DNA of 58,268 nt, counting the filler, from Sphacelaria rigidula (taxonomy: Eukaryota): the NCBI GenBank assembly GCA_964200075.2. It is 4 parts of 4 records of this genome, joined end to end, with 100 filler letters (N's around TTAATTAATTAA, not from the genome) between each part and the next. Parts side by side here need not be neighbours in the genome. Positions count along the whole stretch, not along the records: positions 14,595 to 29,086 come from CAXNAA020002221.1; 3 more parts are not named here. One strand, given 5' to 3'. The notes under the pieces were generated by a model, which saw only the letters and a program-made list of their open reading frames with translations, did no database searches and was not told the DNA's origin. The position numbers and the translations under genes are program-made. Shown here in pieces: positions 14,495 through 56,517 of the stretch; positions within the stretch are counted from its first letter, which is position 1; every line of letters begins with the position of its first letter.

Positions 14495-14594
14495 NNNNNN
14501 NNNNNNNNNNNNNNNNNNNNNNNNNNNNNNNNNNNNNNTTAATTAATTAANNNNNNNNNNNNNNNNNNNNNNNNNNNNNNNNNNNNNNNNNNNN
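14495..14594. other. Artificial contig-join spacer (N run with TTAATTAATTAA)
   Basis: 100-bp spacer whose core has stops in all six frames. Confidence 0.97.
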
Positions 14595-15368
14595 GCGCTA
14601 CCTCTCCCAAGTCGCCCTAAAATGGCCGTTCATTGAGGAGTGTTTCTTGACGTGAAAAAAATATATATCCTACGACCGCCGGAGGCAGGGGTACATCAGG
14701 GCTGGAAATGACCAACCCCAACCCCTTACGAACCCCTTTTTTGGGCTCGATTTTTTAAACAAAAATATGTAACTTTCTTATAAACTCGTAAGTTGCCTTT
14801 TTTGTGCCGCGTTGGTTTCGAGGCGAGGTTTTGAGGTGCCAAATCATTCGTGCGCTGGAAGGCGACATGCACAGTGTATGTGCGCAATGAAAATACGTGT
14901 GGGGGCACGAGGGAGATGGGTGGGTGGAGGGGGAATATCCCGCCGACCCAGGTCACTTTCGACGGATGAATTCAATTTCTTTCTGCTGGGAATTTGTGCC
15001 GCCTAGTCGCAACCCATCTTGCACTCTTATTCATGTTATAAGGCGTAAGCAGCAAGCATGTTTCACGACATTTGCGTGTGACTCTTTTTACGCTGACCGC
15101 CGTGAAGGGTTGTGGTTGCTACAACCAGGACGAAACTTGTCTGACCCGCGGTCACTTTCGAATATAGCAATCGCAATCGACAATGGTATGGAGCTTGCGA
15201 GCCCTGGTGTACACTGCTGCATAATCGTGTTAGCAGGGAGACACTCATTCGCAGGCAGAAAACTACTCCAAGCAGTATCCATTCGTAAACACGCTAAGCT
15301 GGAGGCCCTGCAGGTCCCTGTATGGAATACGCCACCCGTATCACTACCTACTTGGACTACAGAGGCCT

Positions 15369-18174
15369 TCAAGAATCAAAAGGGAACCGTCTTTTCGCAA
15401 CCCTCAAACGTCCACGCTGGCTCCTAGGTTGCAGGACCGATTTATCCGCCTGCCCTGCTGTGCTTTCGACCGAACTGGACCTGCCACGCTTTTTACGCCC
15501 CTCGTGTACCCGCCTACCCCTTCCCGTGCTAATATTTTGCTGACTCTGCCCAAGATGATCGTCTTCTTTTTCTTGGTTTTTTTGTTCTTGTTCTCCTTCT
15601 TGTCCTTGTTCTTGTTCTTGCTCTTCTTGTTCGTCTTCGTTTTCGTCTTCGTCTTCGTCTTTGTCTTTGTCTTTGTCTTCGTCTTCGTCTTCTTCTCCCT
15701 CTTCGTCTTCCTCTTCGTCTTCCTCTTCGTCTTCCTCTTCTTTTTCTGCTTCTTCCTTCTCGCCCTCCTCCCCATCCTCGTCCTCCTCCCCATCCTCGTC
15801 TTCATCCCTGCTGTCATCCACACTGGCATCTGTGGAACTCGCCTCAATTGCAGCTCCCGTCTCGAGTTGCCGTCGCCCGTTCTGTCGTGTTCCCTCCAAC
15901 CAACCTCCTCGCCGTCTTGTGTGCCGTTTTGCGCGGTCTACCCCTTCCCGCCCTAGACTTCGGCTTCGAAGACTCCTTGAACGCGGCTAGTACAAGCTGT
16001 TTTTCCTCTTCGGATACAGTGTATTCCTGGACGAAAGCCTTGGCCTCGTCATCGTTCTGGAGCAGGGCGGACTTGTCAGCGTGTTCCGCAGCGACATGAT
16101 CGCCCATCCCGTACTTCCAGACGTATTGAGGTTACTCGCAAAACTTGCACAGCATGGGTAAGTTGGTTCAGGGAGTCGACTTGGTCGACACTTTCGCTGA
16201 AGACAGACGCAGGTGTACTACCTCACTCCGCATGTCCGCCCTGGGAGCGTAGCGACAATTAGAGAGGACGGTGCCGACCCCGTTACGCTTGGCGGGAGGC
16301 TTGATCGAGGACCGGCACTGCCCTGACCGGCCACAAAACCCGCAAAAACTCTTTTTCCGAAACTCCTTGCGCTGAAGCATGTGGCCGCCGACATGGTAGC
16401 GCATCTTTGTTATCTTCACCTCAACGTTACGGGTAGCACATGCAAGGTAATCGTTTGCGCTCCCCCCCCTGCACACAATGCAGAGTCGTCCAACGGACGG
16501 GAGTGCGTGAATTCCTCGTGAATAGGCAGTGGGTTCACGTCGCTGACCTGGTGCCGCCGCTGCCTTGGAAGGAAGCCCCAACCCTCCAGCCCATCAACGG
16601 CGCAAACAAGAGCGTCCGTCAGTCCCCGGAGCTCATCGCGGGTGAACACGAAGATTTTGAGGTTTCGATAACACCGCACGCACGCGCTGACGGGAATCTT
16701 ACTTGTGGTTCTCCGAATTCTTATGTCGTCGGACCACGGCTTCGGTCAGCTTTTTCACGTCTTCGGCGAAGACGTGATCGCACGGGTAGATCCACTCGCC
16801 GGCAGGGGTTTTTGTTGCTATGGTAGCAATCGGAAGCTCGGCTCCCTCATCCTGCGACTTTGTCGCGTTCCTATCGCACAAGTTCGAAACAACACGCAGG
16901 TCACACCGTCGAAGAGACAATGTTACAAGTTTAGGTAAAGGTGCATATGCATAGGTTGGGCACAGAGTTCATCAGCGTACTTTCCCTTGCGCGGCCTAAG
17001 CCGGACGATATGAACGGTTGGCTGTTTCACGGAGAAAGTGGAGGAACCACATCGCGAGAAATTCAAACCCTGACAAACAGAACGCACTTGTGCCTCGCAG
17101 ACGCCTCGTACTGTTTCAGCTGGGCCTCTCCCATTCCCCTCCCCGTACTGTCGAAAGGCTGCTTGCAAATCTTGCACTCCATTTCCCCTGGTCCAGTCTC
17201 CCGCAGAAGCCTCGCTACGACAGCTGCAACCGTTTCCTTTGCAGCAGATATCGATTGTCTGCTGGTGATAGCGCTGGTCGAGTTGGCAAACCCGAAGGAT
17301 AATTATTGATTGATTTGATTGATTGAATATCGCACTTTAACTGACCCCCCAGGGATGCAGCCGTGGTCACATGATAGACGTACCCAGTAAAAACGAGACT
17401 GGAAAAAATACTCGCTGTGGAAAAAGAAAAAGAAGGAAAAGTTATACCAAAAATCCGAGCAAAACGACACAGTAGGCTACGACGTGAAAAAAAGAAACAG
17501 AAAGGGAAGGGGAAGTAAAAATAAGATAAGAGAAAAAAATAAAAAGCAGACGAAATGATGCGGGAGGCTAAAGGATTTTCCTGTCAATATTTTCTGCGCC
17601 TCGACGGCACGTCAACTAAGCGACCCCGCTTCTCTCGTGTGGCGGGTGACAAGCCGATCCATTACCCGATCCAAATGAATTGAGAAGGTGAATTGCAATG
17701 AAGGTAGGTCGCAGTGTAGCGCGCGTATGACATTGACTTGTTACGGTATGGTTCGAGAAATACACCGGGTTCAAAGCCAACCGAACTCCTGCAAAGTTAG
17801 AAACTGCACTACAGTATACCTTGCCGCAAACGGGTACTGGCAGTTTGTCGTGGACGAAAATGTCTCGGCCGCAGGGTGATGTGCAGACGCCAAAACCGCT
17901 GCGCTTCGCACACGTTGTTGTCGCATTGCTATTCATGTCACCGCATCGCCTGTAATCTCACCTTCACGGGCGTACCCCTGTTGTCCTACTCTTGTGTACC
18001 ATTACAACATGTTCTGTTCATTGCTTTCCTGTTCTGCTGCTACGACATCCAAACAAGCTCACCTTGCATCAGACGCGTTGTTGTTCTCGGTTTTGCATTC
18101 CTCCACTTCCCGTGAAGTGCCTGCACCAGCCGAGCTATCAGCCTCTGCTGCGGCGCTGGTGTCGGCCATCCTTT
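15369..18174 (-). pseudogene. Decayed, apparently spliced gene encoding Cys/His-rich (zinc-finger-like) domains and an acidic tail; probably transposon-borne
   Basis: One frame reads MRYHVGGHML..FCGFCGRSGQC..SNC..STP*TNLPMLCKFCE*PQYVWKYGMGDHVAAEH through two in-frame stops (16168-16170 and about 16132-16134). An E/D/Q-rich tract lies at 15560-15800. Exon-like segments occur at about 18063-18174 (MADTSAAAEA..., GTGAG donor) and 17820-17949 (Cys-rich). Confidence 0.55.
17308..17640 (-). mobile_element. Non-LTR (LINE/SINE-like) 3' end with an (AATC)n tail, inserted in the pseudogene
   Basis: The minus strand is T-rich and UTR-like, ending in TCAATCAATCAAATCAATCAA. The 5' boundary is approximate. 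Confidence 0.45.
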
Positions 18175-18544
18175 CAGCTGATGCACGTTGATTGCGGTCC
18201 GCTGCACTACCTACTGTAACTATGCAGACCTGGTGCTTGGCAGATTCAGAATGCCCCTCTTCTTTACTTTTTCCCCTTCACACTTGATTGCAAAATCAGC
18301 TGAGCCCGTTGGTCAGGGAGAACACATACGACCGTACACTGTGCGGATCTATGTATGCTTCTGTCACGTTGAAAACACACTGCGTCTCACCACCCAAGCT
18401 CTACCCAGTATCTCAAGCAACACTGAAGAGGACCACACTCGCTGAAATGTGTAAAATCTGTACAGGTCGACGTCCAGATTCGGCACGTGTAAATGTTTGA
18501 CCGTGCTCCAGTGTCTATACAGTCATCCAATGATGATCAAACCG

Positions 18545-18640
18545 TACACTAACATCAAGTATTCTACTTACACACTAAATTCAAGTATTTTTACTACACT
18601 AAGATCAAGTAGTTTACGACTACACTAAAGTCAAGTAATT
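18545..18640. repeat. Short tandem repeat, about 4 units of 22-26 bp (ACACTAA..TCAAGTA)
   Basis: TCAAGTA recurs four times, each preceded by ACACTAA. Confidence 0.7.
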
Positions 18641-18758
18641 AGCGCGGACTTGCCGCCCGACGCCCAACCCCCCCCGCCAAACCCCCTTTTTCTTTTTTTT
18701 TCTCGATTTTTTAGGATTTGGGGGGTTCTGTTCCATGAAAAATAATATTGATGTACCC

Positions 18759-19871
18759 TTGGCTGAGACCGGGTATTACCACTTGCTGCACCGTCCATTG
18801 TCCCGTCCACAAGTCGTGGACTAGTTTAGTCGGCACATCCCCGTGTACAAGGGAGCTATCGGACTCCTTTACTAAAATCAGATCCCCTACCTGAGCTCGC
18901 GACCCCACCGACTGGCGACTCAGCTCGGCATTTCTAGCCAATCTTACCTCTTCCCTTCGCTTGTGGCGTTGGGTCAGCAGCTCGTGAGCTTCCTTCAGGT
19001 TTTGGCGTTGTTATTCCACCGTGTTGTTCAACGGTGGAGACTCATCCGCTTCAGGTGACACAGCGTCTATTTGGGTGCGTCGCTCGCGCCCAAAAAGCAG
19101 CTTGAATGGAATCGAGTTATTAGGCAATGAAGGATCGGGAGTAGTACGGTGAATCCATACAGCGGGGTCTACGTACTCATCCCACCTCTTCCGCCATTGC
19201 TTACAAAGCTCGGCCAAAACGTCGTGCAACCATCCTCCGTACCTCTCTATCGCGCCTTGACCGCTCTAGGGTGCTCTGCCGGACCATGATCCAGCTTCAC
19301 CTTCATCCACTGGCATACATGCTTCCGACGTGAACTCCCCCCCAGCGTCACTCCTTAAAAAGTAGGGTACCCCAAACGTCAAGAAGAGCTTCAGCAGGCA
19401 TTTCGCTACGGGTACCGTGAGCTTGGCAGCCAATGGGGGAGCAAAGAGAAACTTGGTTGCTCGATCCACGATGATCAACAAGTACCTGTTGCCCGAGGCG
19501 GAAACCTGCTTCATGTTCGATATGTCCATCTCTAACACCTCCCATGCTCGCAGAAATCGGGCAGGCCGCATTGCTAGGGTGTGACTGTTGGTACGCTTGC
19601 GTCGACGACATCCACAAGATAACACATATTTGCGAGTATCGGCGAAAAGAACAGGCCATTCGTACCGTGCGTTGACTACTGCAGTCGTCCTCATTACTCC
19701 AGCGTTTCCATGCGTAGTGTGCACCCACGCCAGCAGCCCTGGCACTAGGCTGCGTGGGATAGCTAACTTGGCTGGCTCCTTAGGGGAGGTGTACCATAGA
19801 AGATTATTCTCATCTAGCACATACGCATCGCGCCTCTTGCTAACTCCTTCATCCTTAGGCTCCTTTCTCAA
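18759..19871 (-). pseudogene. Gypsy integrase (frameshifted)
   Basis: Zn-binding region HTTHGNAG..RYEWP..SCGC. Catalytic core EMDIS, LIIVDRATKF, FGVP..LRSDAGGEF. Then WDEYVDPAVWIHRTTP..PFKLLFGR and the C-terminal VGDLILVK..KL...WTG.W.V. Confidence 0.92.
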
Positions 19872-20159
19872 CCTATCCTTGATGGGTCCCAGACGGAAGT
19901 CCGCTCTTGTAATAAAACGAGTTGTGATTTGTCCGTCAGGATCGCCCGCGTTTGTTCGAGAACGGTTCTAGTGTTAACTTTACCTGGTACTGGCTCATCA
20001 GCTGAGGCCTCCCCCCCACCAGAGTCCTGGTACGACTTATGTGCCGCTTCGGGAACCGACGAGCGCGTTACTGCGGCTCCCCACGTCTCTGGCAACTCAT
20101 CCTCAATCGGCCATATCGCCGCTAGCGCACTTAAACCTACGTCCTCACTCCTAATCCGA

Positions 20160-21070
20160 GTCAAGCTCAACCAACCTTTTGTTTCCAAGCTTGATAAAAC
20201 TGCCCCTAACATCCGCGGATGAACGAAACTAGCCACAATATCTAGCATAGCATCGGGGTTCACCGTTGGTGGAGTCTCGCAGTGGTCGAGGGTGGTCGCG
20301 ACTCTGACGAAGTCGACTCTTTCCAACTCTACTGCTTCCTCCCGTACCCCTGCGTCCGCCCTGTGGGTGTAAATTCCTCGCGCCGAGGTTTCCCTCTCAT
20401 CAGCCGAGAACGGGTTAACCTGGGCATCGGATCCTCGAAACTATGAATAGCCTTGCCTTGCCCCGTCGGCTCCAAGAAATAGGTGCTAGTCCGCCCAAAG
20501 AGCTGGCCCAACGGGGGGCAGGTTAGAGCATACGCTTCTACTCGCTGCCTCAATGCGCGCAGTGACTCTTCCACCCGCCAACCAGCCTTCAGAGCGACCA
20601 CATAGGTCCGTCGCTTCCTGTACGGGGCACCCACGTGCACGGCTGATATAGAAGCCTGCTCAACGCAGCAACCGACTCCGTTCAGCAACGGAGCCACGTT
20701 CTCCGTCCAATTCGGAGAGTGTACCATCACACCCGTACTTTCCAAGATCAGCGTTGTCGTCGAGACTGAGGAGAGGAACGTCTCGACCAATTCTCGGACA
20801 CCATCTGCGGATTCCAACTCTCCCGCACGTTTATCAACGGAAGCAACCCTACTCATATCTTCTACCAGCACTTCTGGTTGCACCTCTTCCACCAGATTGT
20901 GGAAAGAAGGGCACCCTGGAGCCGTACGTACCAGCTTGACTTCCTTCCCAATTTGGTTCATTCTGACACAATTCAGCGCCTTCTAATTTGCATCAGTAGC
21001 TGCTACCACCTCCAAGAACTTCTCCGCGGCAAGAATGTTTCCCCCGCCTCCACAATGGACAATCAAAGGG
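20160..21070 (-). pseudogene. C5 cytosine DNA methyltransferase-like domain within Gypsy pol
   Basis: Motif I-like LIVHCGGGG (HCGGGG at 21057-21040) and motif II-like VVAATDAN*KAL..VRMN. Motif VI-like LILEST, motif VIII-like GAPYRKRRTYVVA (20631-20593), motifs IX/X-like ELERVDFVRV...IVASFVHPRMLGAV. No Pro-Cys at motif IV. Confidence 0.75.
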
Positions 21071-21339
21071 GGGGGGTCGTTGCTTAACCGGTCCTGCCAC
21101 AGGGTTCTCTGAGTCAACCCTGTCCCTTGTTTCCGGTGGATACAACGCGCTGACCTCCTCCAACGCCAATGTCATCACATGCGCGGATTCCCTCGGGTAC
21201 CCAGCCTCCAACTCCTTCAGTAACATCCCGTCCAGTTTGGGTCCTTGCGGTCCTCCTCCTCCGCCGGGTCCGGCTTCGGTATCATCGTCAGGGAATGAGA
21301 CGTCAATGTCACTTCCCCGGGGTTGGCTCCCTTGCAGCC

Positions 21340-21919
21340 GAGATAGGGCGTCCGGCAACTGGTGTTCGCGTCCAGCCCTCCACTTGAGGACCATATCATA
21401 CTCCATCAATCTTAGCGCCCACCGGTGGAACTTAGGCGACAAGTTCTGACTACGAAACAGCCATGCCAACGCACTGCAATCCGTAACCAGAGTAAACTCT
21501 CGCCCCCATAGGTACGATTTGAATCGTTCCACGGACCACAAAACAGCGACTACTTCTCTCTCTGATGCTGATCTTTTTTCATCTGCCCGCGACCATCTAT
21601 GACTAGCGTATTCGATTACCGATTCCCTCTCATCCGCCTCCTGGGACAGGGCGGCCCCTGCTGCGAACTCGGAAGCGTCTGAATGTAGCACGAACCGTTC
21701 ATTCCAATCCGGGTACGCCAAGATCGGATATGATATCAGAGCGCTCTTCAAGTCAAGGAAGGCTTGTTGCTGCTGTTCCCCCCACGGAATTTTCATCCTC
21801 CGCGCTCGCTTAGAAGCGAACCGCGGGTCACGCAGCAAGTCTGTGAGCGGTGTTGCCGTGTTACTGTACCCCTTTATGTACCTCCGAAGATATCCAGTCA
21901 TACCTAAGAACGACCTTAG
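21340..21919 (-). pseudogene. Gypsy RT connection and RNase H
   Basis: LRSFLGMTGYLRRYI, PILAYPD..RFVLHSDASEF, EREVVAVLW, FTLVTDCSAL, RWALRLMEYD..G..H..PDALSR. Confidence 0.95.
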
Positions 21920-22640
21920 CTATTCTACCCTCTGCGGCTCCCTCAACTGAGCGATAGCTTCAATCTTAGACTGGGAGGGTCGTATTCCCGATGCGTCGAT
22001 CGTCATCCCTACGAAGTCCTGTTGCTGAGTGCACCATTGTGATTTCTGGAAATTCACAGAGAGGTCAGCCTTCAGCAAGCAATAGAGCACAACTCTCAAC
22101 CCCGTTATGTGGCTGGCGAAAGTCGTACTAGACCACAAGATATCATCCAACCAGTTCTTGACACCCCGCGCCGGCAACAACGCTTCAGATACTGTTCGGT
22201 GAAATGTCGCGGGTAGTACCTTGAGTCCGAGTCCACAACGTTGATAGTGCCATAAGTGCCCCCTCGCATCGCGAAAGGCGGTAAGATGTCGGTCTTCTTT
22301 CGCCACTTCCAACTGGAAAAACCCACTCGCTAAATCCACACTCGTAAAGTACTTGGATCCCGCTAGGCCACTATACATGGTCTGCATACCCCCCAAACCA
22401 ACACTATACGACTCGAGAAGTTCGTTTAGCCCACGATAATCCTGACGCAACCGTAAACTACCGTCCTTCTTCCGCACCGTGACGCAAGAAGCTGCCCATG
22501 CGGACGTCAACGGCTCAATGATCCCCCGCTCCGCGAGTTTCTGGATCTCGTCGTGTATAGCAGTTTCTTGTTCCGGCGAGTATCGTTTAGTACCAGCAGC
22601 GAATGGCCGGCACCGGGGGTCTTTCAGTCGTAGATGCAAT
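21920..22640 (-). pseudogene. Gypsy reverse transcriptase
   Basis: VRKKDGSLRL..DYRGLN, YFTSVDLASGFFQ, DRHLTAF, GLK..PATF, WLDDIL, VNFQKS. Confidence 0.95.
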
Positions 22641-23459
22641 GGCTCCCCACGCGCTGCTTTCACCCGCTTGGGGCCCACCGCGAACAGACCTGCTTCGTTG
22701 AAGTCTCTCAACACGGATAACAGCTGGGTCTCCTGCACCGAACCCAACTGGCTCATGTTCGCCTCCGTGAGATCTACTCCTGTGGCCCCAGTTGTGTCCT
22801 TCTCCACTTTCGTTGGTTCCGGCGGCGGTTGGGGAGGGGCTGGCGTAGTCCCTCGATCCTCCAGCCCCGACTTCAGCGTAGTTTCCGTGTCGGACACATA
22901 AAGATTTTGCAACCGCTCGCGATCTCGAACATTCACGGCCACAACCTTCGCCACTACCATATCTTTCTTCACTAGGCGAGTACTCTTGGCCGTGTTGACC
23001 ACCTTACATACTAACGGCAACTGTGGGTCCCACCACTGCACTCCCCTGGCTACCCCTATCTCGGCTTCCTCATCTAAATAGAACAAATTTCGAGGTTCGA
23101 TCAACACGAGTTGACGTTCCTATGGTTGAGGACCTCGCACATAGCCTGGAACTAGCTCGCTAACGAAGCCTTCTAACCTTGCGTCCTCCGTCAGCCGCAG
23201 AAGCCACTGAAGTGTAGCGTCGTCCTCCCACGCCGCTCCCAGGCTCTTCCACACCTCATCCCATGCTGCCAGATCGCTCTCTTCTGACAATACCCCCGTC
23301 GGGTCGTCGCTGAGCGCGCTTGGCTTGACAGCATAGAAGAGATTCCACCTGGCCGAATCCCCTTGGCCGGTGAGGTGATCGGTGTCAGCAGCTCCGAGTT
23401 TTGGTGAACCATTAGACACGAATCTTACCCACGGAGCCTCAGGCGAAGGTCGAAGTCCT

Positions 23460-23881
23460 GATCGACCTTCAAAAGACAGTGTACTCTTGTTCCTTCTAAA
23501 GAAACTTGCCCCCAAAATAAATCCGTACGGCAATCCATCGACCATCCTGACCCATACTTTCCTTATTCTATCCTTTGGGTGGAACCGAATCGGGATTGCC
23601 GTTGACCGTAGAATCTTCATCGGTGGCGTCCGGCTGTCACCAGGGTTTGCTGCCCTCTAAAATCCTGCTCCCTGACGCTGCAGCTTGCCTGTGATATTAC
23701 CCCACGTCACCAACGACTTCCACCACTGCTTCGATGCATAGCTACCCCCCCCCGCCCCGGTGTCCAGTAACACCGTTACTGGCAAACCGTGGCTACTTTT
23801 ACTGTGGTGCCAAACTCTAGCTTGCACCCACAGTTGCTGTGCATCGCTACCATTTATAGCTGACAAACTATCCACGTACAC
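23460..23881 (-). pseudogene. Gypsy aspartic protease
   Basis: VLLDTGAGGGSY active site and the GLPYGFILGASFF motif, in one frame across a TAG at 23657-23659. Confidence 0.85.
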
Positions 23882-23917
23882 GCTGTCCCCCGGGGACTGT
23901 GGCCCCAGGGCGCACCT

Positions 23918-26104
23918 TCATTCTTCGCCTGTAGCGTCGAAACGGTTGCTCAGTGCATCAACCGTCTCGACTCCCTCCTCCTCGTCGTCGCTTTCTGGTT
24001 TGTCCAGCCAGTGGTTGAACCCCCGATCTTTGTTCTGGCTGTCAATCAACCCGAACAACTCCCCCAGTTGTAAGCTCATCAGCCTGCCCTTCTACGTCTT
24101 GGGCTCTGCTTGTGTCGGCTCCGGTTGCTTGTAGTGACCGAAGGGAATTCGATCTTGATCGTGGGAGTAATTGCAGCCGCCCTCTGAGTCCTTGCTGCTG
24201 CAGTCTCGTCCATATGCATGGTTGAAACATCCCCCCAGCAAACGTATGGCGACGTCGCGCTCCCCCTTGGGCGTATTGTGGGCAGGGAGGAACCCGGTCG
24301 CCGGTGCTTCTCCTCGCGTGTCAAACTTGATACGCTTGGTGGGCTTAGCTGATTCTTCCTTCGGGTGTTTCCGTGCTCCACGAGTAGATGAGGATGTCTC
24401 GAAAGGCGTGCCGCCTCGTGGTGTTGATGCCTTTTGGTTGCTGAAGGCAGCAACGGAGTGGAAGTCTTGCCCTTGGGTCTCTTCCTCTGCTTCTTGCATG
24501 AGTCGCTTCTTAACTTCTACCAACCCCGCGTATACGGGCTTGTGTGCGGGGCGTGTTAGGGCTGCAGTAGCGCTATTCATCGCCTCAGTAGATGTTCTAG
24601 AACACTCACAGTGACGTTGAATGGCCGATACAAATTCACTATATATATGATACGTGAGGCGCCCTCGCTTCTTCATGTCGGGGCTGCACGGGTCTCCATG
24701 GTGAACTGGGAAGGAGCGGACGTCGTCCTCTAAGGCTTTGTTGGGCGTTTGTAGCAACGTATGCGATACGATTTGTGCAGTCGGGTCGGGGATTACCAAC
24801 TTATGGAAAGTGCTGCACATCTGTAAGACCAAAACTTCCGAGGCTGTCCTCCAGGAGTATTCCTCCTCTGCGAGGTGTGGAGAGGTTGAAGAAACCGTGG
24901 CCGCCATAGTTAACAGTATCAGCCGATGAGCGGCTGCTACATAACTCTCATTCTTGAGTAGTTTCATGTTGTGCAGTGCAGGCTGTGCATGGCTTACGCC
25001 CATCCTCGCTTTTTCTGCTACTAGCTTCCGTAGCCACTCCAGAGCGGTTACGTCTCCAAACGGTACGCGTATGAAATTTCCTGTTACACCAGGTACTGAG
25101 ATCTAGTTCTCCCTCCAACTTGTCATCTCCGTATACGTCGCGGAGGTAGACAGCATTACACGCATCAGAAGGTCCCTGTGTCTATCTGTGTACTGATCCG
25201 CTTGTGGTTTCAGCGGCTTACTGGTCATGTGTGCATCAGTAGGGACCCTCCAATTCCCCCCTTCATACGCCGCGAGCGTGGGACGAAAATGGTTCGCGAA
25301 CAAGACCGCGGAGTTATGATAAGTCAGTTCTGCATTGTGATCTACAGACCGTCCCTTGTAAACGGTGGTATCAGTGTCCTTGGATTCGAGAAGCTTGGCC
25401 AAAGTGTTTGCTTGACGTGACATCGCTTGTTGGTGTTTCAGTACAGCCGACCAGTTGTGATCAGACGGGTATGGTGCGGGAACACGAGGATACGTGGCCC
25501 CATACGGAGTCCGCCCATCCAGCCTGGATTGGGCTACCGGGGTTACACCAGAGGAATGGAGAGATCCGTAGAACGGACTGCAGTAGAGACAAACCGGGTC
25601 TGGCGCGACCGTAAACCTCGAGCGGCGCTGCGGGGGAAACGGCGGTGGAGGTGGCAGCTGGGCATGAGTGAAATTTCCAGCGGTCGGAGCTTGATAAGCC
25701 CCCTGAGGCACAGAGACTGGATTTGCCGGCTGAAGAGGCGAAGGAAATAGACGGCGGGACATGCTGAGGCATCGGGCCAAAGTGCCCTTGCTGTTGTTGT
25801 TGCAGAACCTGCTGATGAGGATGTGCGGCCACCTGTTGCTGCCGAAGCGGTCCAACAGCCTGCTCCTGAGGGAGTACGGCAGCCTCTGTTGCTGAACAGG
25901 TCCAACAACCTGTTGCTGAGGGGGTGCGACAGCCTGCTGTTGCTGAACAGATCCAACAAACTGTTGCTGAGGGGATGCGACAGCCTGTTGTTGCTGAACA
26001 GGGACGAAAGGTTGCTGCTGCTGGGGGGCTTGCACTGGAGGCTGTTGACTCGACGCGGATGGGTAGAAGGGTTGGGCTTGCGGGTTCAAGGGGTTTCCGC
26101 TCAT
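23918..26104 (-). pseudogene. Gypsy gag-like ORF (Q/P-rich N-terminus, C-terminal CCCH finger)
   Basis: ATG at 26104, directly upstream of and in frame with the protease. Contains internal stops and apparently compensating frameshifts in the Gln-rich repeat. Confidence 0.7.
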
Positions 26105-29086
26105 CCTTTTGCCGATTTTTGAGTTGGCTATTCGGTACTTGAAACGATAACCTGCACACATATGCCACATGAATATGATAACATCAGTCAAACGTACTTC
26201 ATAATATCGACACAATACCTCACCGTCTCGTGGACGCGTTGGGCAGAATGAGGTGAGAAACGTCCTTAACTCATCAACGTCGAAAAGACACAATGGGATA
26301 AAACAGACAGCCTCAATTTTCCATCATGGTACAAGAGTGGAAAGCAGAAGGGGAAGGTGAACAAGGGGGAACCGGAAAGCAAGCATGACAGGAAATTTGA
26401 TCGCGCAGGACGGGTTCATGTGAGCATTCGGCTCGAATTTCCCTAAATGAGGAATAATCAAGGACGTTCTCCCAGGCCTCGGCCTCCTGTCAACCTGGAA
26501 AAGCACGCGGGGGGAAACATGGCTCCCATAAACCTGTTCGAACGAGCACGGTTTTGCTATCTTGGGCCTCCGTCCTCCTTTATTTCCCTGTATGTAGTGA
26601 TTCCCTGCCTGCTTGTGGGTGAGCCTATTGTAGAACGCACGCATACTACGAAATCACACGAATTTCCCATTTCATTCACACGTTGTCTGGCGTACATGCT
26701 AGCAAAGTGCATAATGTCCTTAATTATTACTCTCATTGTTCAGCACCAGCCAACCACTCTGTCGATTTCTCTTCGATATATATTTCGGCAAAAGAATGCG
26801 TGGAGCGCGTAGACCCTCAAGACCAGAAGCCCCGTCCAGAAGAACCCGATGGTGGTCAAAACATGCCCGATTAGACGATCAACTCTTGCAGTTGGTCGCC
26901 AGCGAGTGCAGAGTAGATAGAAATCGGGAGTCGGGGGGGTAACGTCCGTCGGGTAGCCTTGTGCACGTCTCTTGGCTTGCAACACTCTCAGTAGTTGTCC
27001 AATCGCGGCAGTGTTGAGGTGATCAACGCAGCCATGGGTGGAAAACTCAGGGGATCCATGACTGATGGATTGATAATCCGCCGCCCCGGGAATCGTTGAA
27101 TCAATATCGCGGAAGAGAAAACAATATTATGGTCAGTGTTTGAGTACACTTGGACACGATCATTTCATGTATTTAAAGCCGTGAGTTAACTACAATACAC
27201 CGTTGGGTCTGGTCTATTCAAAACCGGAGTAGACACCCCACAGCCTTGAGCTATCCTGGCAATGAGAACCACGTTGAGGTTACTTCCATTTCCATGTCAA
27301 TAAACATTCCGACTATCAGTGCTTACCCCCCCTGACCAGGAGGTAGGGTAAATGCCTCATATGTGGTAACCTGCGTAATAAATGATTCACTGGAGATTCA
27401 CTGTAGACAGGTCACAATGCGTTTTGGTCATAGACGCAGACATTCTACACCACTGCGTGAAATTGATGCCCATTCGACAGATGACCTGCTCTCGCTGTGT
27501 AAAAGTTAAAGCGCAATCCTCCTCAACACCACACTCAACACGAGGCAGCATTCTAAAACTTCTGGTTCAAGACAGATAACAACACGCGGCGGCTTTGTGG
27601 CTGCATGTATTGATTTGAAATAACAGCACGTTCTAAGCGTAGCTGGCGTCAGTGAATGAAGCGGAACATTCGGTCCTGGCTACCGGCTTTATTACTGTGC
27701 TTGCGTCGTGAAGCACATGCAGTGATACCAAACCACCGTACAGTTCAATACCGCTCGATCACTCAATCATCGTGGGTCTGCTCGCTGTGGTGTACGCCCA
27801 TGATCAGTTTCTCCGAACTCTGTTGATTGCCCCGCATCGTGTGTGCAAATCGATCAATAATACAGTACCACCTAGTAAAGCTAAGATCCAAAAGGACCCT
27901 TTTTGTTCTTCCTTGAAAAGCACACTACATGTGCATTACTAGATTGAATACAGAGTCAAGGAGTTCAGCGATATACTCGTACTGGGCTGTGAACAGTCAA
28001 TACAGTCATTACACACCGCCCTTCTTGTAAGCGCAGTCACAACTCAATCAACCGGTCGTCTGTAGAGGGTATAATTTAACGTCCCGACCCAATTTTGGAA
28101 CAAATCACCATCCATATGTCGTGATACCCCGCTTTCAACACTCACAGGGTTGCCTGTCTCACCGGTAGACTATCGTAACGGCAACACGATGGCTGAGGAC
28201 AACATAACATTGCCCTTTGCAACTGCATCACTCGGCAATAAGTGAGCGTACAGCAGCTGTTGCGTCGCAGGTTCCACGACCGGTGTAGCGGAATGAAGAT
28301 TCTCAAAATCTTTCCTTGATCCTGTCGAATCAACCATCGTTAATAGATCCGGCTCTTTCTAGGAAAAAGTGTCAATCTGGATTACTCAGAGCGAGAGAGA
28401 GAGGCACGAGTCTCGTAGGTGTAACCACAGCTGTAGCCTGGTGCAAAATACCCAGATCGGTGTTCATTACACTTTAATCCACAGCCCACATCAGAAGTCG
28501 CTAGAGTTGTGAATTCACCCATCATGGCTCCATGTTCCTCACTTTATCGCCTTCTGAGAATTGATAACATCCGAGGTGGCACCGGCACGCTGTGTTAGGT
28601 ATCATACTCAGTCTGACGTTTCACATTAGTGATGGCTCATAAATTTGAATCTAACTCCAGGTAGCATGCGCCAAGTGCCATCTCACGGTATCCAGTAAAC
28701 CGTGAAATCAATGTAAGCGGGTAGCACGAATGCCATGAGCCTCAATCATCACGATCTTTTCCTCCATGATTACAACTGTCATGGCAGCACAAAGTTGACT
28801 GATCACGTTGTCAAGTTCTTCAACCCATGAACTCGAGCGCTGGCGGTCAATCCAATCGTCAAATCATCCGTAATTATACTAAAAAACATGTATACGGATA
28901 GTTTCTTTGTACATCGTACAACAATGCTCTCGGCACGACTGCCTGTGTGGGGTTTCCCGTGGTTGCAGACATGCAGTAGCTAACTCTCATCACAGTGATG
29001 GCTACTATTCACATCATGCCTAGACGAATAACAGGGTTGCCAGAAAAATGAGAACGTATTTTGAAATGAGAATCAACCGCTCCCCG

Positions 29087-29186
29087 NNNNNNNNNNNNNN
29101 NNNNNNNNNNNNNNNNNNNNNNNNNNNNNNTTAATTAATTAANNNNNNNNNNNNNNNNNNNNNNNNNNNNNNNNNNNNNNNNNNNN
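29087..29186. other. Artificial contig-join spacer
   Basis: 100-bp N run with TTAATTAATTAA. Confidence 0.97.
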
Positions 29187-30496: not shown

Positions 30497-31748
30497 TCAT
30501 TTTTGCATTATTACTATGATCTCATGAGCTTTTACACCGCAACCCACATGGTCCAACACCTCCACCCACATGCCAATATCGCAATGCACATATCAGCTGC
30601 AGAGACAAATCAAGTTGCTCTGTGTAAAGCTAAGACTCGTACCTACCTCTAGGTTCTAGCTGCGCAGACCCTTTCCACGGATGAAATCATCGAGGTAAAG
30701 TGAAGGTCACCTACTACTACTGCAAATATATCACTGCTCTCAGAGTTTTTCGCTAGATTCTTGACCTCTAACGATGGATTGTAGCTATAAAAGTTGTGCC
30801 TGCCTGTAGAGTTTTGGCCCGCTGACATTACATGATATATTGTCAAGAATATAATTTTTTCCATTTTGATACCTACGGAACTGCCGAGTTTGAGGGCGAT
30901 CTGAGCTTTCCTACAACAGATATTATAGAGGATACCGTCACGAGGCTCCCTGGGTCTCTTGTGCGTACCATTGACTGCGACGTGAACGACAGCAGCCACA
31001 TATGGGCGATGGCACAGCATCGTCCAGGGCACGCAATTGTGCACAAAATTCTTGATTACATTGTCTGTCCCGCATCGCTGGTCGCGCTTGCGTCCCATCA
31101 CATCAAAGGTGACAACCTTAAACCTTTTCACATACAACAGACAGTACACGCGATCTATTTTTTGTATTTTTGTCGAAAATGACACAGGTATAAGTATCCC
31201 GATCCCCTCCAGACAAGAACGCCTCTGTCCGCTTTGAGGTGCTGTGTACATCGTGATCGCCGGCACAGGCTACCCGTAGCGTCCAGCGACACCTCAAGCT
31301 CAATTACTGTAGTTGCATTTGGGAGGGGAAGACATTGCTAATTGCTGCACTCCGTGAGGCATCAATCTCGAAATACAACTGCACGACACGAAAAGGGGGG
31401 AGATCCGTAGTTGGCAGAGCGAAAGCGGAAGAAGGAACTTGCTGGCTCGCGCTGTGGAGGACACAGGAAGACAGCAATCGAGCACACAACAGACGCGGAG
31501 TTCAAGAGTTAACACACAGCATTCGTCCCTGGGTGCTGCAGGGCTGTGAGTGTTTGGCACTGTTGTACAAAAATCGCTGCACTCCAGGGTACTGTCGGTG
31601 CAGGCGAGTGTTGGTTGTCATCATTCCACGGCTTTTATCAAGCAACAGGCGGTTGGTTCTGTGTGTCGACACACCCCGGAACCTAAATTGGGCAGAATTT
31701 TCATTCGGGTAGCTGGAACTTTAAATTTTTCATCCTGCGCAGTTGGAC

Positions 31749-31985
31749 ATGAATGGGTTGGGCGGGGCGGGAGGGGTGGGGGTGGGCGGGACCGCAGTGG
31801 GAGCAAACAGCAAGCCAACACCCCTGCTTATTCGGATCCTTATGATTGGCGATAGCTCGGTGGGGAAAACGTCTTTGGTGCTACGGTATGATAACCGGGG
31901 TTTTAACCTGCGGTTTACGACAACGATTGGGGTGGACTACAGCGACCGCTTGCTGGAGTTGGAGGGCCGTCAAGTCAAATTACAG
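31749..31985 (+). CDS. Rab-family small GTPase (Rab8/RabE-like), exon 1
   Basis: G1 GDSSVGKT, switch I TTIGVDY, VKLQ|GT donor. Length 237 nt, phase 0. Confidence 0.93.
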
Positions 31986-34646
31986 GTACCAGACAGTACT
32001 TCAGTGATAATTGTGCCAAACTCTGTGGGGCAGTCTCTACTGCTAGAGTCAGTTGTATGTTCAAAAATGTCTGCGCGTGGTCGGCACTTTCGTATTTGCA
32101 TCAATGGCGGCTGTTGGCTGTGTCAGGCAACAGGCACAGGGCAGGGCGACGGTGACATGTTTAGTTGCAAGGAGAGTGGCACGTCAGTACGATTTTTGGG
32201 GTTCCTTCTGCTACCAGTAGATCGTATGCCCTCGGATTTATATTTTCCCTGCTCCTTGACTCGTTTTCTGGGGCCTTCAAAATAACGAGAGCTGACATCA
32301 AGAGCTTTGTGTAGGGCCCAGAGGATCGCGGGTTGTCCACCTTGCTGGTCTGAACGCATGATGCTTACGAAAGTCAAGCTGGCAGAACCTCCCTTCCCTC
32401 TGCATGTATGTCAGCATTGGCGAACACCTTTGTGCTGTATTGCTAGTCTCCTCGAATAGCACCCGCCCAATGTACGTGCGAATTTTTGCACCCGTCTACA
32501 CCGTGTCTGCTTTCCAACTCCTTCCGAGATCAACCGTTATGTCGGACCTTGAAATGGCGAGTCAGATTACCTCAATAGCTGCGCATTAATGGTTCCCCTC
32601 CGGCATAACAACTGTCTGTACTGGCGTGTTTGTACACAGTGCTCTACGGTCCATACGGTATTACACTGTTGTGCTGTACTGGCACTGTTGTGCTGTGCTG
32701 TTTGCTAGAAGTACTGGCTGACCTGTTGGTATTTTTCAAATTCGAGCGTGCAATGGGCAGATGGGTTGTACTGTTTTCACGCTCGCGCGTTTTCACGGTG
32801 CGTCTATGAGCAATTCTAGAGACAGGGATAGACGCGGCGCTGTAATTTTCGCGAACATACAGTACGAGTATCAGGAAGCATGAATCGTGTGCATTTCTTT
32901 CTAACCCCACGAACATATAAACCGTCTATACTGGCCATGGAATTGTTTTTCTCGGGACGGCGTGCTGGCCAGGTAGGTCTGCGTGTTTTCCGGTATGGAA
33001 TCAGAGTCAACCATACACATTTTCTGTACCACTTCGAATTATAATACTAGTGCACGGGTGTGTTATCGCAGGAACACACCGAACACATGGCAGCGCGTGT
33101 CTGGTCCTTTCATATCACGCCGTCTTTTTTTTTCGAAGCTGAAAGAAAGGAAGAGGCGTCGGCTTGTTTGCTTGTTTTCACGTGTCCTGTGCGAGTCCCA
33201 GACCGGTACGCCACAGGCTGCTATGCAATTGTGCAGCAGTGAATGAAAGCTGTGCGAGCTCTGTGATTGACTTCATCTTCTGTCTTTTTTTTCTCTCAAG
33301 AACGAATATGTCATTGCTGGGCCCAACGCAACATGTACAGCTGTCAAGTCACCCTACTCTACAGACCCGCCGAACTCTCTCATTTAGCTCTGGAAGCTGA
33401 CTGACCGCAGTTATGTTGTAGTGATGCTGCAAGTCACCAACGGCCAAAACTTGGAAAAAACTGCAATCCCCACGCGCCCGATACCGAGAAATCGAGTCGG
33501 TGTTTTGTCATGGCGTGCGCGTGAGAATTGTGCATTCCCCGCGCTGTCGCAAGCCCATGACGCCGACAGTTGTGGTTTACGTGTCTCTCCTTGTTTTACA
33601 CCGGTGCAAGATTTTCACACACAGCAGTATTGGGTAGATGACGCCCATGGCCCTTCAGCGAGCGGTGCCATTTGAATTTATGTCAAACAAATCTTTCATG
33701 TACGTCATGTGTATTCCCCATAAGTGGTCCACTTCGTACTGCAGGACTTCCTCCCTGCCTATCGTCCATGAGTGTATGTTACGCTTGTCGACTATATATT
33801 CTTCGAGATACTACGGCTTGTTTGCGGATCATGCAGTGGAGACACGTCACAAATACAAATACCGACAGTCCGATAGTGCTGGACGACAATGGTTAATCAA
33901 TCATTCTTTCGTGTCGCTACGAGTTCAGAATCTCCCCATTTGCGCTTTTTGGAACCTCCGCAGCTGCCTGACCCGCCTTGAGGGGATCTGATGCTCGAAC
34001 CCATGTCGTCAGCAGTGTCCGTACATGTTAGTCGGGTGCCCTCTATGAAGTATGAGTGTACCGAAGTCGTCTACAGAGCATCGGCAGAGGGGCTACGCAG
34101 AAAGCCGCGCAAGCTGGTGCGTTGAACCGGGCGCCTAGATTTCGGTGAAACACCAAGATTCATCTTGTGCCATGATGACCGGTCGCAACCCTCCGGTAGC
34201 CTGAGGGCAGTTGTCCAGGGTTACTCAGGCCGATGTCTCGCGGACCCAATTCTCACTCATGTTGGGAAAGAATAATGTATTCCAACTGGAAATTCGATGG
34301 AGACGCCGAATCCGAGTTGCTGTTCTTGATGCAGTTCATTGTCCCTCCTCTCCTCTGGAGAAAGCCACGTGCACACTTGGCAAAGCCACTTCGGGGTATT
34401 CAAGACAAGCGGTATCCCGAAAAGCAACCGGGGAATGATATATGCTATCGAATAAGTAGGGGGGTAAAGGTAGCTTTTGTCTGAGTTGAGCGAAATCCAG
34501 GTCCGCGAACGCCAAAATGAAGGTTTCAGCGCTTCGACCAGCGCGTCCCGACCGATGAAATTAGAACAAATTGCGGGCTAATGTTTCCCCTCACTTGTTT
34601 CGGGTGGTTCTTCGTTGCATTCAAGACTCACATTAATAAGCCGGTC

Positions 34647-35989: not shown

Positions 35990-36272
35990 TCGGTCAAAAG
36001 CTCCGATATATTTGCTGGCAATCGAACCCACATTTCTCGGACCTGATGGTTCAATCCCTTGGCCGCACGGGTAGTTCACATCTGGATCATGCATACTTTT
36101 TTCAGGTAAAATTGAAGCCGATTCAGCAAATGCTCGTCGTCTGAGGGTTGAGGCTGTTCCATTGACCCTTAGACCGCGGTACGGGTAGTCCATCTGGATC
36201 ACGCATACTTCTTTTAAGTGAATATTGATGCCGATCCAGCAAGTGACCTACCGTCGCGGCCAAAGGGTTAAG
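35990..36272. mobile_element. Cluster of about 100-bp TTAA-type mini-MITEs
   Basis: CCCTT.G.CCGC...GCGG.CAA.GGG-TTAA units, same family as 41016-41113. Confidence 0.6.

Positions 36273-56477: not shown

Positions 56478-56517
<40 letters not shown>

Follow-up and report, generated by a model that had tools for sequence, protein, structure and literature searches.

A strongly diverged descendant of C5 cytosine methyltransferases, probably non-catalytic, in the pol region of a brown-algal Ty3/Gypsy lineage

Introduction

Retrotransposons that carry a DNA methyltransferase (DNMT) have been published for dinoflagellates, a charophyte, Cymbomonas, and Euglena (PMC5890265; bioRxiv 10.64898/2026.05.21.726589); an earlier note on the DNA studied here had named the dinoflagellate and charophyte cases, both of which are in print. 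Their methyltransferase domains are recognizably DNMT3- or DNMT4-like and keep the key catalytic residues, and their hosts have 5mC.

Brown algae are reported to have no DNMTs except DNMT2/TRDMT, with DNMT1, 3, and 5 completely absent, and DNA methylation is treated as dispensable in them (PMC13076208). Low-level non-CG 5mC is described in the kelp Saccharina, with no known DNMT besides DNMT2 and with six genes reported as "DNMT2" (PMC6916402); the same paper quotes a 5mdC level of <0.035% for Ectocarpus. In the literature covered, which included bioRxiv 10.1101/2021.11.30.470311, we found no brown-algal retrotransposon described as carrying a cytosine methyltransferase-like domain; the element schematics and domain tables in the supplements of PMC12477816 could already show one. 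The main text of PMC12477816, the Gypsy-10_Ec32 lineage paper, names reverse transcriptase, RNase H, integrase, protease, zinc knuckle, chromodomain, Tudor, and NADAR, and names no cytosine methyltransferase-like domain for Gypsy elements. The main text of the Ectocarpus transposon catalogue may be silent on the domain because standard domain searches miss it.

Here we describe such a domain in the window, by which we mean the whole stretch of Sphacelaria rigidula DNA that was analyzed (58,268 nucleotides, filler included; assembly GCA_964200075.2), and its relatives in other brown algae.

Results

Layout of the element

On its minus strand the window contains a gag-pol region with protease, reverse transcriptase, RNase H, and integrase, the order by which Ty3/Gypsy elements are recognized (Table 1). 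The gag-like open reading frame (ORF) has in-frame TAGs at both ends (25103-25105 and 24092-24094), and the protease region is interrupted by another at 23657-23659; neither has a Pfam match. Both resemble parts of other polyproteins: Residues 75-230 of the Nemacystus polyprotein P0079 match the gag-like ORF at 24991-24521 (tblastn), a similar Cys/His stretch is found in P0086, and the Asp-Thr-Gly protease motif is common to P0083 and P0086. The reverse transcriptase is 43.8% identical to that of P0083 (160 amino acids). In the integrase, the Integrase_H2C2 and rve matches span 19269-19967, residues 804-1022 of P0017 match at 19427-18777 (tblastn), and in-frame stops occur at 19266-19268 and 19011-19013 before the pol frame terminates at 18711-18713. 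The tandem repeat directly past this stop probably belongs to the 3′ untranslated region of the element; other copies have loose ends at 18634-18637 with letters similar to the repeat.

Table 1. Features of the Sphacelaria rigidula element, in positions of the window
Feature	Position	Strand	Basis or detail
Gag-like ORF with C-terminal CCCH-type zinc-finger-like stretch	24092..25102	-	ORF listing
Aspartic protease region, Asp-Thr-Gly motif	23120..23917	-	translation LLDTGAGGGSYAS
Reverse transcriptase	21923..23119	-	PF00078 (RVT_1), E 3.5e-16
RNase H and linker after RNase H	20996..21919	-	PF17919, E 1.1e-29; PF17917, E 9.9e-29
Nine-base homopolymer (nine C on the minus strand), frame shift from RNase H to the domain	21068..21076	-	sequence, reading frames
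Diverged C5-cytosine-methyltransferase-derived domain	20160..21066	-	relatives, PF00145 in the family, hhalign, Atlas
Motif I slot (approximate)	21066-21040		
Motif IV slot (approximate)	20860-20840		
Motif VI slot (approximate)	20745-20730		
Motif VIII slot (approximate)	20640-20600		
Motif IX and X slots (approximate)	20330-20200		
In-frame TAG inside the domain	20983..20985	-	column nearly invariant among relatives
Second frameshift inside the domain	20364..20371	-	tblastn frame switches between 20371 and 20365
Linker from the domain to integrase	19968..20159	-	frameshift near 19900 just downstream
Integrase: zinc-binding H2C2, catalytic core, C-terminal part	18714..19967	-	PF17921, E 9.9e-7; PF00665, E 1.3e-5
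26-base tandem repeat, 3.8 copies	18545..18641	.	directly past the pol stop

About 300 codons separate RNase H from integrase, as the earlier note had claimed and as the flanking Pfam matches confirm; the window pieces give no significant Pfam match there. Searches for terminal repeats, direct or inverted, found none, either within 14600-29080 or over the window as a whole, a view restricted by 100-base masked stretches at 14495-14594 and 29087-29186, and long terminal repeats (LTRs) or DIRS-like terminal repeats were rejected as the ends of the element. The window copy is decayed or truncated.

Decay of the window copy

Three lesions named beforehand, in the homopolymer run, at a TAG codon, and near 20370, were located where claimed (ORFs, tblastn), but they are far from the whole list: across gag-pol there are nine internal stops (seven TAG, one TGA, one TAA) and at least three frameshifts, one of them near 19900, where ORFs 19868-20440 and 19266-19967 lie in different frames and other copies differ in length. 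Past the run of nine C's, the homologous reading goes on in another frame (tblastn, ORFs). One-base length differences are seen at 21070 and 20364 in a share of other genomic copies (public runs), so these two frameshifts are private to the window copy or to some copies. The TAG inside the domain is spanned by a read contig identical to the window. From run X5, guessed to be RNA, 25 pieces were compared with the stretch; none was at ≥99% identity, four were at 95-99%, 12 at 90-95%, and nine at <90%.

With seven of the nine stops being TAG, stop-codon reassignment was considered and rejected: In relatives the stops face varied residues (Trp, Leu, Glu, Ser, Phe/Tyr/His, and Asp/Pro), and because they align to different residues they represent decay rather than recoding. 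The window copy is a long-dead pseudogene, and its own residues therefore tell little about function.

Relatives and lineage of the domain

Scanning the complete set of 1.84 billion representatives with HMMER gave 81 relatives of the domain at E ≤ 1e-3, and 26 of these reached E ≤ 1e-10. Ten polyproteins have the order reverse transcriptase, RNase H, domain, integrase. Where a source is named, it is Ectocarpus sp., Cladosiphon okamuranus, or Nemacystus decipiens; all three are brown algae, in agreement with the origin proposed earlier. The insert is a real pol domain common to a whole lineage of brown-algal Gypsy elements and no accident of the window copy. Of the proposal that a Gypsy lineage captured a DNMT, the derived domain in Gypsy pol holds; the capture itself we infer.

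Within the lineage of Tudor-carrying elements, identity to P0083 is 61-72% for the reverse transcriptase, 50-66% for RNase H, and 53-60% for the domain; by these figures, conservation of the domain comes close to that of RNase H. The clade of the window copy is more distant, with 30-35% domain identity to the Tudor lineage. Fragments predicted from short contigs make up many of the family rows; these could represent dead copies, which makes the residue counts given below noisy. The window piece found nothing in word-indexed searches, whether at near or at longer lengths, and searches for related DNA loci gave no relative for P0006 (metagenome contigs), P0016 (viral contigs), or P0027 (genome contigs).

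Homology to C5 cytosine methyltransferases

The window's own pieces have no match to PF00145, but 10 of the 82 family members match it at E ≤ 1. P0026 scores best, with 23.2 bits against a cut-off of 22, and is the sole member above the cut-off. All of these matches fall within profile positions 79-179, corresponding to motifs VI-VIII, and no other Pfam family recurs in more than two of the 82 members. A methyl-CpG-binding domain (PF01429; window piece E 0.0074, below cut-off) was rejected as a chance match, being found in one of 82 members.

For profile comparisons we used a canonical set of 17 enzymes (Escherichia coli Dcm and 16 phage or plasmid enzymes), with profiles built from nine and from all 17. 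The family (74 effective rows) aligned to the 17 canonical enzymes with a probability of 79.6% (E 1.5e-5, local hhalign), compared with 0.1% (E 0.54) for a reversed-family control. The clade retaining the motif IV Cys gave E 1e-4 alone over 155 columns, with motifs I, IV, VI, and VIII in register and the family Cys aligned on the catalytic Cys of the canonical enzymes; the profile of the window's clade alone was not significant against them (E 0.17). An hhalign comparison of profile A1 with Dcm alone, a single-sequence template, has no power. Motifs I, IV, VI, VIII, IX, and X are colinear with those of the canonical enzymes, I-VIII with confidence and IX-X in the greedy extension only. The peptide strings quoted in the earlier note are all present in the window, in the family-alignment columns of these six motifs. 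Column by column, conservation in the family is correlated with that in the canonical enzymes (Spearman 0.279, P = 4e-4), a value reached by none of 154 circular shifts.

Features from the ESM Atlas point the same way. For residues 425-770 of P0017, 30 of the 30 nearest clusters are PF00145 (score 0.94; 176 of 256 shared), as are 30 of 30 for P0019 (score 0.92), and the Atlas neighbors of the domain are bacterial and viral DNA methylases. The Atlas model of P0019, a 158-residue fragment with a pTM of 0.57 and a mediocre pLDDT of 0.61, has PF00145 structural neighbors with a TM score of 0.67 over 144 residues. In sequence searches of the Protein Data Bank, neither the window piece nor the A1 profile matched a DNMT, and the A3 profile gave five unrelated weak matches, the best being spermidine synthase over the GxGG loop. 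P0026 touched two DNMT-family chains over motifs VI-VIII, namely DNMT2 (1g55, E 0.19) and a tRNA C38 methyltransferase (9hgm, E 0.2), in a search in which an unrelated phytase scored better. The Pfam, hhalign, and Atlas results show that the domain is homologous to C5 methyltransferases, bearing out the derivation proposed in the earlier note.

Motif residues kept and lost

Several hallmarks are kept in the family. Motif I retains its GxGG loop (Gly in 24-25 of 28 rows at its three Gly columns; Gly-Gly-Gly-Gly in the window), followed by an acidic residue; motif VI retains Glu (57 of 67 rows; Glu in the window), and motif VIII its Pro and Arg; and a basic Arg-Arg follows the motif IV Cys or Ser. 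The last Arg of motif VIII is found in 40 of 58 rows, with Lys in a further eight. The best conserved stretches of the Tudor lineage include the loop Gly-Asn/Asp-Ala-Cys-Arg-Arg-Tyr-Asp. This loop, together with the GxGG, acidic, Glu, and Arg residues, would also fit an unusual active enzyme and to that extent speaks against a non-catalytic reading.

Other residues have been replaced. The aromatic residue before the motif I loop is Gly in 14 of 28 rows and His in the window. The Asn of motif VI survives in one of 67 rows (Cys in 33, Ser in 24), and the adjoining Val has become Thr or Pro. In motif VIII, Gln has given way to Ser or Thr (19 each of 58 rows) and the middle Arg mostly to Lys (40 of 58); the window has Pro-Tyr-Arg-Lys-Arg-Arg. 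Gly-Asn is missing from the motif X slot in all 13 covering rows, where the commonest reading is Phe-Thr-Leu-Pro-Pro-Met-Leu and the slot alignment is of low confidence; its absence from the window, claimed before, is confirmed.

The motif IV column contains Cys in 28, Ser in 17, Tyr in four, and other residues in 10 of the 59 covering sequences, and the Pro expected before it in none, so that a check for an intact Pro-Cys across the relatives came back empty. The missing catalytic Cys of the earlier note is correct for the window, which reads Met-Ser, and for its clade (none of six rows), but does not extend to the family: Both Ectocarpus proteins, for example, carry it. On the tree, Ser or Thr in this column requires at least four changes and Cys is found in deep clades, and the Cys looks ancestral in the family. 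At least two clades that kept diversifying have swapped Cys for Ser or Thr, and one has shortened the loop. As the alignment reads, the degeneracy is family-wide and older than the loss of Cys, because Pro is absent everywhere and other catalytic residues are replaced in all clades.

Discussion

We consider it probable that the stretch is the pol part of a decayed Ty3/Gypsy copy encoding a strongly diverged C5 methyltransferase descendant, common to a brown-algal Gypsy lineage that includes the Tudor-carrying elements and now probably non-catalytic. The non-catalytic reading rests on what has been lost. No clade has kept the motif I aromatic residue, the Pro of Pro-Cys, the Asn-Val of Glu-Asn-Val, the motif VIII Gln, or Gly-Asn, and at least two diversifying clades also replaced Cys, yet other motif residues stay conserved. 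In the mechanism that we propose, a domain descended from a C5 cytosine methyltransferase (PF00145 fold) within Gypsy pol would have lost canonical methyl transfer and been retained to bind nucleic acid and possibly to flip cytosine; it could act on cDNA or target DNA at integration, for example in targeting or cDNA protection, beside the element's other chromatin reader. Judging from sequence, the balance tips modestly toward such a role, a polyprotein module that is no longer a canonical methyltransferase and works around integration.

The Cys that aligns on the catalytic Cys, kept in 28 of 59 rows and in deep clades, invites another reading, which we think unlikely: The Cys-bearing versions in Ectocarpus, Cladosiphon, Nemacystus, and other clades would be active C5 DNA methyltransferases that use Ala-Cys-Arg for Pro-Cys-Gln and methylate cDNA or the neighborhood of insertions, and the Ser clades, the window's among them, would have branched off later and lost function. 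Activity would be in keeping with the high conservation of the catalytic-loop stretch in the Tudor lineage and with retention of the GxGG loop, of Glu in motif VI, and of Arg in motif VIII, but every clade has replaced residues that do not vary among the 17 canonical enzymes (Pro in 59 of 59 sequences, Asn-Val, Gln, the motif I aromatic, and Gly-Asn), and clades without Cys retained the domain and diversified. The DNMTs of other retrotransposons are regarded as functional (PMC5890265), and the low-level non-CG 5mC of Saccharina has no known DNMT besides DNMT2 behind it (PMC6916402); against this, 5mdC in Ectocarpus is quoted at <0.035% (PMC6916402), and the element is not CpG-depleted (observed/expected 0.91, compared with 0.97 in the window). 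It is quite improbable that brown algae carry hundreds of retrotransposon-borne copies of an unorthodox active Ala-Cys-Arg enzyme that would mark element DNA or RNA/DNA intermediates. If they did, these could be a source of the unexplained low-level, mostly non-CG 5mC in kelp, and some kelp "DNMT2" genes could even be such elements.

Derivation from the host tRNA methyltransferase DNMT2/TRDMT, with action on RNA such as the primer tRNA or the element's genomic RNA, seems very unlikely. Brown algae do keep DNMT2 homologs (PMC13076208), with six "DNMT2" genes reported in Saccharina (PMC6916402), and 1g55 and 9hgm are the sole solved DNMT-family chains touched by P0026. Both E-values are insignificant, however, the phytase scored higher, and the Atlas neighbors are DNA methylases of bacteria and viruses. 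DNMT2 retains the canonical catalytic motifs, which are absent from the brown-algal family. It is scarcely credible that the insert is an unrelated Rossmann-like or novel spacer domain whose likeness to C5 methyltransferases arose by convergence or chance: The window pieces have no PF00145 match, one member of 82 passes the Pfam cut-off, the Protein Data Bank sequence searches are negative, and the spermidine synthase match of the A3 profile lies over the GxGG loop, yet four partly independent lines (recurrent Pfam matches, profile-profile alignment, Atlas features, and Atlas structural neighbors) arrive at PF00145, with colinearity through six motifs and conservation correlated column by column.

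Read as non-catalytic, the domain would be a fossil of a methylated ancestor re-used as a nucleic-acid-binding module, a clean case of pseudoenzyme exaptation in a mobile element; read as active, it would be an overlooked source of 5mC. Either reading bears on the interplay of transposon and host after a lineage loses DNA methylation.

Comparison with known systems

The brown-algal domain shares with canonical bacterial and phage C5 methyltransferases (PF00145) the motif order I, IV, VI, VIII, IX, X and a variable insert between VIII and IX, and keeps their GxGG loop, motif VI Glu, motif VIII Pro and Arg, and, in part of the family, the catalytic-loop Cys. It differs in that about two-thirds of the residues conserved in ≥88% of the 17 enzymes are replaced and in being embedded in a polyprotein. 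Inactive DNMTs of the DNMT3L type keep the methyltransferase fold while their catalytic motifs have decayed, and have a non-enzymatic role. The brown-algal domain would be like DNMT3L in keeping the fold while the catalytic motifs decay. DNMT3L is a partner of active DNMT3. In brown algae, by contrast, no active DNMT partner is known (PMC13076208).

Among Gypsy elements, the Ectocarpus, Cladosiphon, and Nemacystus polyproteins resemble the Ectocarpus Tudor lineage Gypsy-10_Ec32 (PMC12477816) in ending with a Tudor-like region; PF21743 (Tudor-like) matches P0085, P0088, and P0017 weakly (E 5.8e-4 to 8.5e-3, all below the Pfam cut-off). The domain-bearing Ectocarpus-type proteins may be Gypsy-10_Ec32 itself. 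The window copy differs from this lineage in having no C-terminal Tudor: The match to P0017 extends no further than residue 1022 of that protein (window position 18777), and pol ends at 18711 with no match to the Tudor part.

A C5-methyltransferase-type domain inside a Gypsy pol polyprotein is also what KnitGypsy-Dnmt3 of Klebsormidium nitens has (PMC5890265), and SymbioDIRS-DNMT3, SymbioLINE-DNMT, and the "EpiLTRs" of Cymbomonas and Euglena likewise have such a domain in retrotransposon pol (PMC5890265; bioRxiv 10.64898/2026.05.21.726589). Compared with these, the brown-algal domain has diverged so far that most members escape Pfam, and its hosts are reported to lack DNA methyltransferases. 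All of its clades are without the Pro of Pro-Cys, Asn-Val, and Gly-Asn, about half are without Cys, and the domain could not be tied to any DNMT class, unlike the DNMT3- and DNMT4-like retrotransposon domains. DNMT-carrying retrotransposons are known from a handful of lineages, each of which has cytosine methylation; in the brown algae, a widespread Gypsy lineage that includes elements of Ectocarpus carries a descendant of such an enzyme.

Layout and decay of the window element

All recognizable parts of the element belong to one long broken gag-pol reading on the minus strand, with the end of pol at 18711 (see table). The roughly 300 additional codons between RNase H and integrase that an earlier note had described are confirmed. 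Other copies have loose ends at 18634-18637 with a similar sequence, so the 26-base repeat directly past the pol stop seems to be a 3′ feature common to the element subfamily. The last 150 residues of longer relatives have no counterpart in the window pol, and no LTRs or other terminal repeats were found for the element. The Gln/Pro-rich ORF may represent the gag N terminus or else foreign DNA.

Features of the element and of the remainder of the window
Feature	Position	Strand	Evidence or remarks
Gln/Pro-rich ORF	25103-26323	minus	directly upstream of gag-like ORF, same frame, TAG between; no Pfam match
24- to 51-base tandem repeats	25785-26038		inside Gln/Pro-rich ORF
gag-like ORF	24092-25102	minus	upstream of protease
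Protease	23120-23917	minus	Asp-Thr-Gly motif; upstream of reverse transcriptase
Reverse transcriptase	21923-23119	minus	Pfam, E 3.5e-16
RNase H	20996-21919	minus	Pfam, E 1e-29
Extra domain, ~300 codons	21066-20160	minus	RNase H-integrase interval; no significant Pfam match of its own
Integrase, zinc-binding and core domains	19269-19967	minus	Pfam
26-base tandem repeat	18545-18641		3.8 copies
Pyrimidine-rich, microsatellite-like long tract	15560-15760		downstream of element; period 6, ~20 copies, degenerate 30-base repeats
Open frame, 454 codons	3213-4577	minus	longest outside element; no Pfam match
ORF with N-terminal Ras/Roc small-GTPase match	31725-32282	plus	PF00071, E 3.7e-11, confined to profile positions 1-54
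Short dispersed direct/inverted repeat clusters	36056-42321, 46162-48326, 55361-57033		self-comparison; 70-90% identity, 80-370 bases
Paired 44-base N runs	14495-14594, 29087-29186, 43678-43777		spacing ~14.59 kb

The three lesions named in the earlier note are all real by sequence, frames, and stop list: A nine-C run (minus strand) at 21068-21076 is the site of a frame shift, an in-frame TAG stands at 20983-20985, and the frame changes between 20371 and 20365. Another frameshift lies near 19900, and the gag-pol reading (18711-26323, minus strand) holds nine internal stops (seven TAG, one TGA, and one TAA). Four public sequencing runs from the same organism supplied contigs for comparison with 18600-23200; they yielded 62, 336, 844, and 25 pieces of at least 88% likeness, which shows that the element family is highly repeated. 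A share of these other copies is off by one base in length at 21070 and 20364, so these frameshifts do not characterize the family. The TAG at 20983-20985 is spanned by a contig identical to the window. Reassignment of TAG as a codon was rejected: the stops line up with different residues in relatives, as expected from decay. The TAG excess probably reflects codon make-up and transition-dominated decay, and transitions do predominate among the differences between copies in the run contigs. The window copy is a dead fossil.

Elsewhere in the window, the ORF with the small-GTPase match probably represents a single host-gene exon, and the dispersed repeat clusters probably belong to further small repeat families or MITE-like elements. 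The N runs look like masking and not like assembly gaps; their positions are those of the 100 filler letters that join the four records and are not from the genome.

A family-wide pol domain

Word-indexed searches with the domain returned no relatives. When all 1.84 billion representatives were scanned with HMMER, 81 were found at E ≤ 1e-3 and 26 at E ≤ 1e-10, most of the 81 being fragments from short contigs. By a profile search for longer proteins we found 10 polyproteins that carry the domain, among them two from Ectocarpus sp. CCAP 1310/34, three from Cladosiphon okamuranus, and four from Nemacystus decipiens. The order reverse transcriptase, RNase H, domain, integrase holds in every polyprotein with flanks present, and the 1451-residue predicted polyprotein P0083, on a 6.7 kb contig, is unbroken from protease through the domain. 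Several polyproteins have a weak Tudor-like match at the C terminus (E 5.8e-4 to 8.5e-3, under the Pfam cut-off); we infer that these fit Gypsy-10_Ec32, the Tudor-carrying Gypsy lineage of Ectocarpus described in the available text of PMC12477816.

Within this Tudor lineage, identity to P0083 is 61-72% in reverse transcriptase, 50-66% in RNase H, and 53-60% in the domain; integrase identity to the Ectocarpus polyprotein P0084 is 73% for P0088 and 70% for P0017. Conservation of the domain thus comes close to that of RNase H. The window copy lies farther off (reverse transcriptase 44%, RNase H 57%, domain 30-35%, integrase 43-55%). These data show that the domain is a family-wide component of pol with a fixed place.

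Origin from C5 cytosine methyltransferases

Four agreeing lines of evidence (Pfam, profile-profile comparison, conservation, and the ESM Atlas) give good support to the descent of the domain from C5 cytosine methyltransferases, as the earlier note had claimed. In the search against PF00145 proposed there, the window pieces gave no match; among 82 family alignment rows, PF00145 was found in 10 at E ≤ 1, and other families in at most two rows each. The family member P0026 alone scores above the curated cut-off (23.2 vs. 22 bits). On re-scanning of ten proteins, six matched the same profile positions, 79-179 (motifs VI to VIII), and four did not. Against this descent stand the missing window match and the lack of significant hits when Protein Data Bank sequences were queried.

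For local hhalign comparisons, public records supplied the canonical set: E. coli Dcm plus 16 annotated C5 methyltransferases of phage or plasmid origin. The family aligns with nine canonical enzymes at E 0.0019 (reversed control 0.39) and with all 17 at a probability of 79.6% and E 1.5e-5 (reversed control 0.1%, 0.54). The clade bearing the motif IV Cys aligns alone over 155 columns (E 1e-4), with motifs I, IV, VI, and VIII in register and its Cys on the catalytic Cys; greedy extension carries the colinear order, with low confidence, across motifs IX and X, so that the motif order noted earlier is borne out to this degree. The Ser clade alone gave E 0.009, and the window's small clade alone was not significant (E 0.17). 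Column entropies of family and canonical enzymes are correlated (Spearman 0.279, P = 4e-4), a value unmatched by any of 154 circular shifts. By ESM Atlas features, the nearest clusters carry PF00145 in 30 out of 30 cases both for residues 425-770 of P0017 (score 0.94, 176/256 shared) and for the Ser-clade fragment P0019 (score 0.92, 154 shared). The P0019 model supplied by the Atlas (pTM 0.57, pLDDT 0.61) has structural neighbors in PF00145, with a TM of 0.67 over 144 residues.

Residues kept and lost

Residues were counted in an HMM alignment of all family members, with covering rows as denominators. Motif I keeps its three Gly in 24-25 of 28 rows, and an acidic residue follows shortly past it in 40 of 44. 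The motif VI Glu is present in 57 of 67 rows, and in motif VIII the Pro in 48 and the last Arg in 40 (Lys in eight) of 58. Other canonical residues are replaced throughout the family: the motif I aromatic residue mostly by Gly, the Asn-Val of ENV (Asn in one of 67), and the motif VIII Gln by Ser or Thr. The motif X Gly-Asn is found in none of 13 rows. Gln replaces the usual motif VI Glu in P0006, P0010, P0054, P0025, and P0067, three of which also retain the Cys.

The motif IV column holds Cys in 28, Ser in 17, Tyr in four, and other residues in 10 of 59 rows. The Pro-Cys whose occurrence in other copies had been in question is never present, the preceding Pro being absent from all 59 rows (Ala in 33, Thr in 11); the following Gln is replaced, by Arg in 40. 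In a tree of 45 rows, Cys occurs in deep clades and Ser/Thr requires at least four changes, one leading to a clade of 10 rows (support 100/100; nine Ser) and another to the window's clade (support 96/83). The clade of P0043, P0055, and P0063 keeps the remainder of the domain with a catalytic-loop region ∼11 residues shorter, which makes a third route to Cys loss. The Cys looks ancestral in the family and is still present in about half of its members. The earlier reading of the domain as catalytically dead stands for the window copy and its wider clade (Ser five, Thr one, Cys none of six) and needs restating at the family level, where the loss of Cys is not general. Degeneracy, as read from the alignment, affects all clades.

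Possible function

These comparisons establish where the fold comes from, its constant position in pol, how well it is conserved, and which residues it keeps or loses. We consider canonical methyl transfer unlikely in clades with Ser or a shortened loop; the Ser clades still conserve the Glu, the residues of motif VIII, and the Arg-Arg past the Cys slot. In the Cys clades, too, loss of canonical transfer appears likelier than retention, because every clade lacks many otherwise invariant residues near SAM and the target base. For these clades the chief competing reading, which we regard as rather improbable, is an active enzyme of an unorthodox kind; it is supported by the Gly-Asn/Asp-Ala-Cys-Arg-Arg-Tyr-Asp loop, which is very highly conserved within the Tudor lineage. 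An RNA methyltransferase derived from DNMT2 is a weak lead only.

The conserved glycine loop, the Glu, the basic residues past the Cys/Ser, and motif VIII would suit a module that grips nucleic acid, perhaps also a flipped cytosine. This favors, by a little over an even chance, a noncatalytic role within either the polyprotein or the pre-integration complex, where the domain may help to target or handle the cDNA. Observed/expected CpG is 0.91 in the element and 0.97 in the window; this lack of CpG depletion fits an absence of CpG methylation and is silent on other contexts.

Comparison with known systems

In the available text of one curated study of Ectocarpus transposons (PMC12477816), the additions to Gypsy elements are chromodomain, Tudor, and NADAR; its main text does not mention a cytosine-methyltransferase-like domain in them, and its supplements could bear on this. 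Full-text literature searches yielded no description of such a domain in brown-algal retrotransposons. According to the text available for each, brown algae reportedly lack DNMT1, 3, and 5 and retain only DNMT2/TRDMT homologs (PMC13076208), and ∼1.4% methylated cytosines and six "DNMT2" genes are reported for Saccharina (PMC6916402). This is a host group in which a DNMT-carrying retrotransposon was not expected.

Retrotransposon-borne DNMTs are described from Symbiodiniaceae (DIRS and LINE elements), Klebsormidium, Cymbomonas, and Euglena in the available text of PMC5890265 and bioRxiv 10.64898/2026.05.21.726589, which does not mention brown algae or stramenopiles. In contrast to the domain studied here, the Klebsormidium Gypsy element carries a DNMT3 with its key residues kept and a Ka/Ks < 0.2, and those of Cymbomonas and Euglena are DNMT4-like (same sources). 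The family is a strongly degenerate form of the already known combination of retrotransposon and DNMT domain, in an unexpected host group. The interest lies in this family, above all in its intact Ectocarpus members, through which the question becomes testable.
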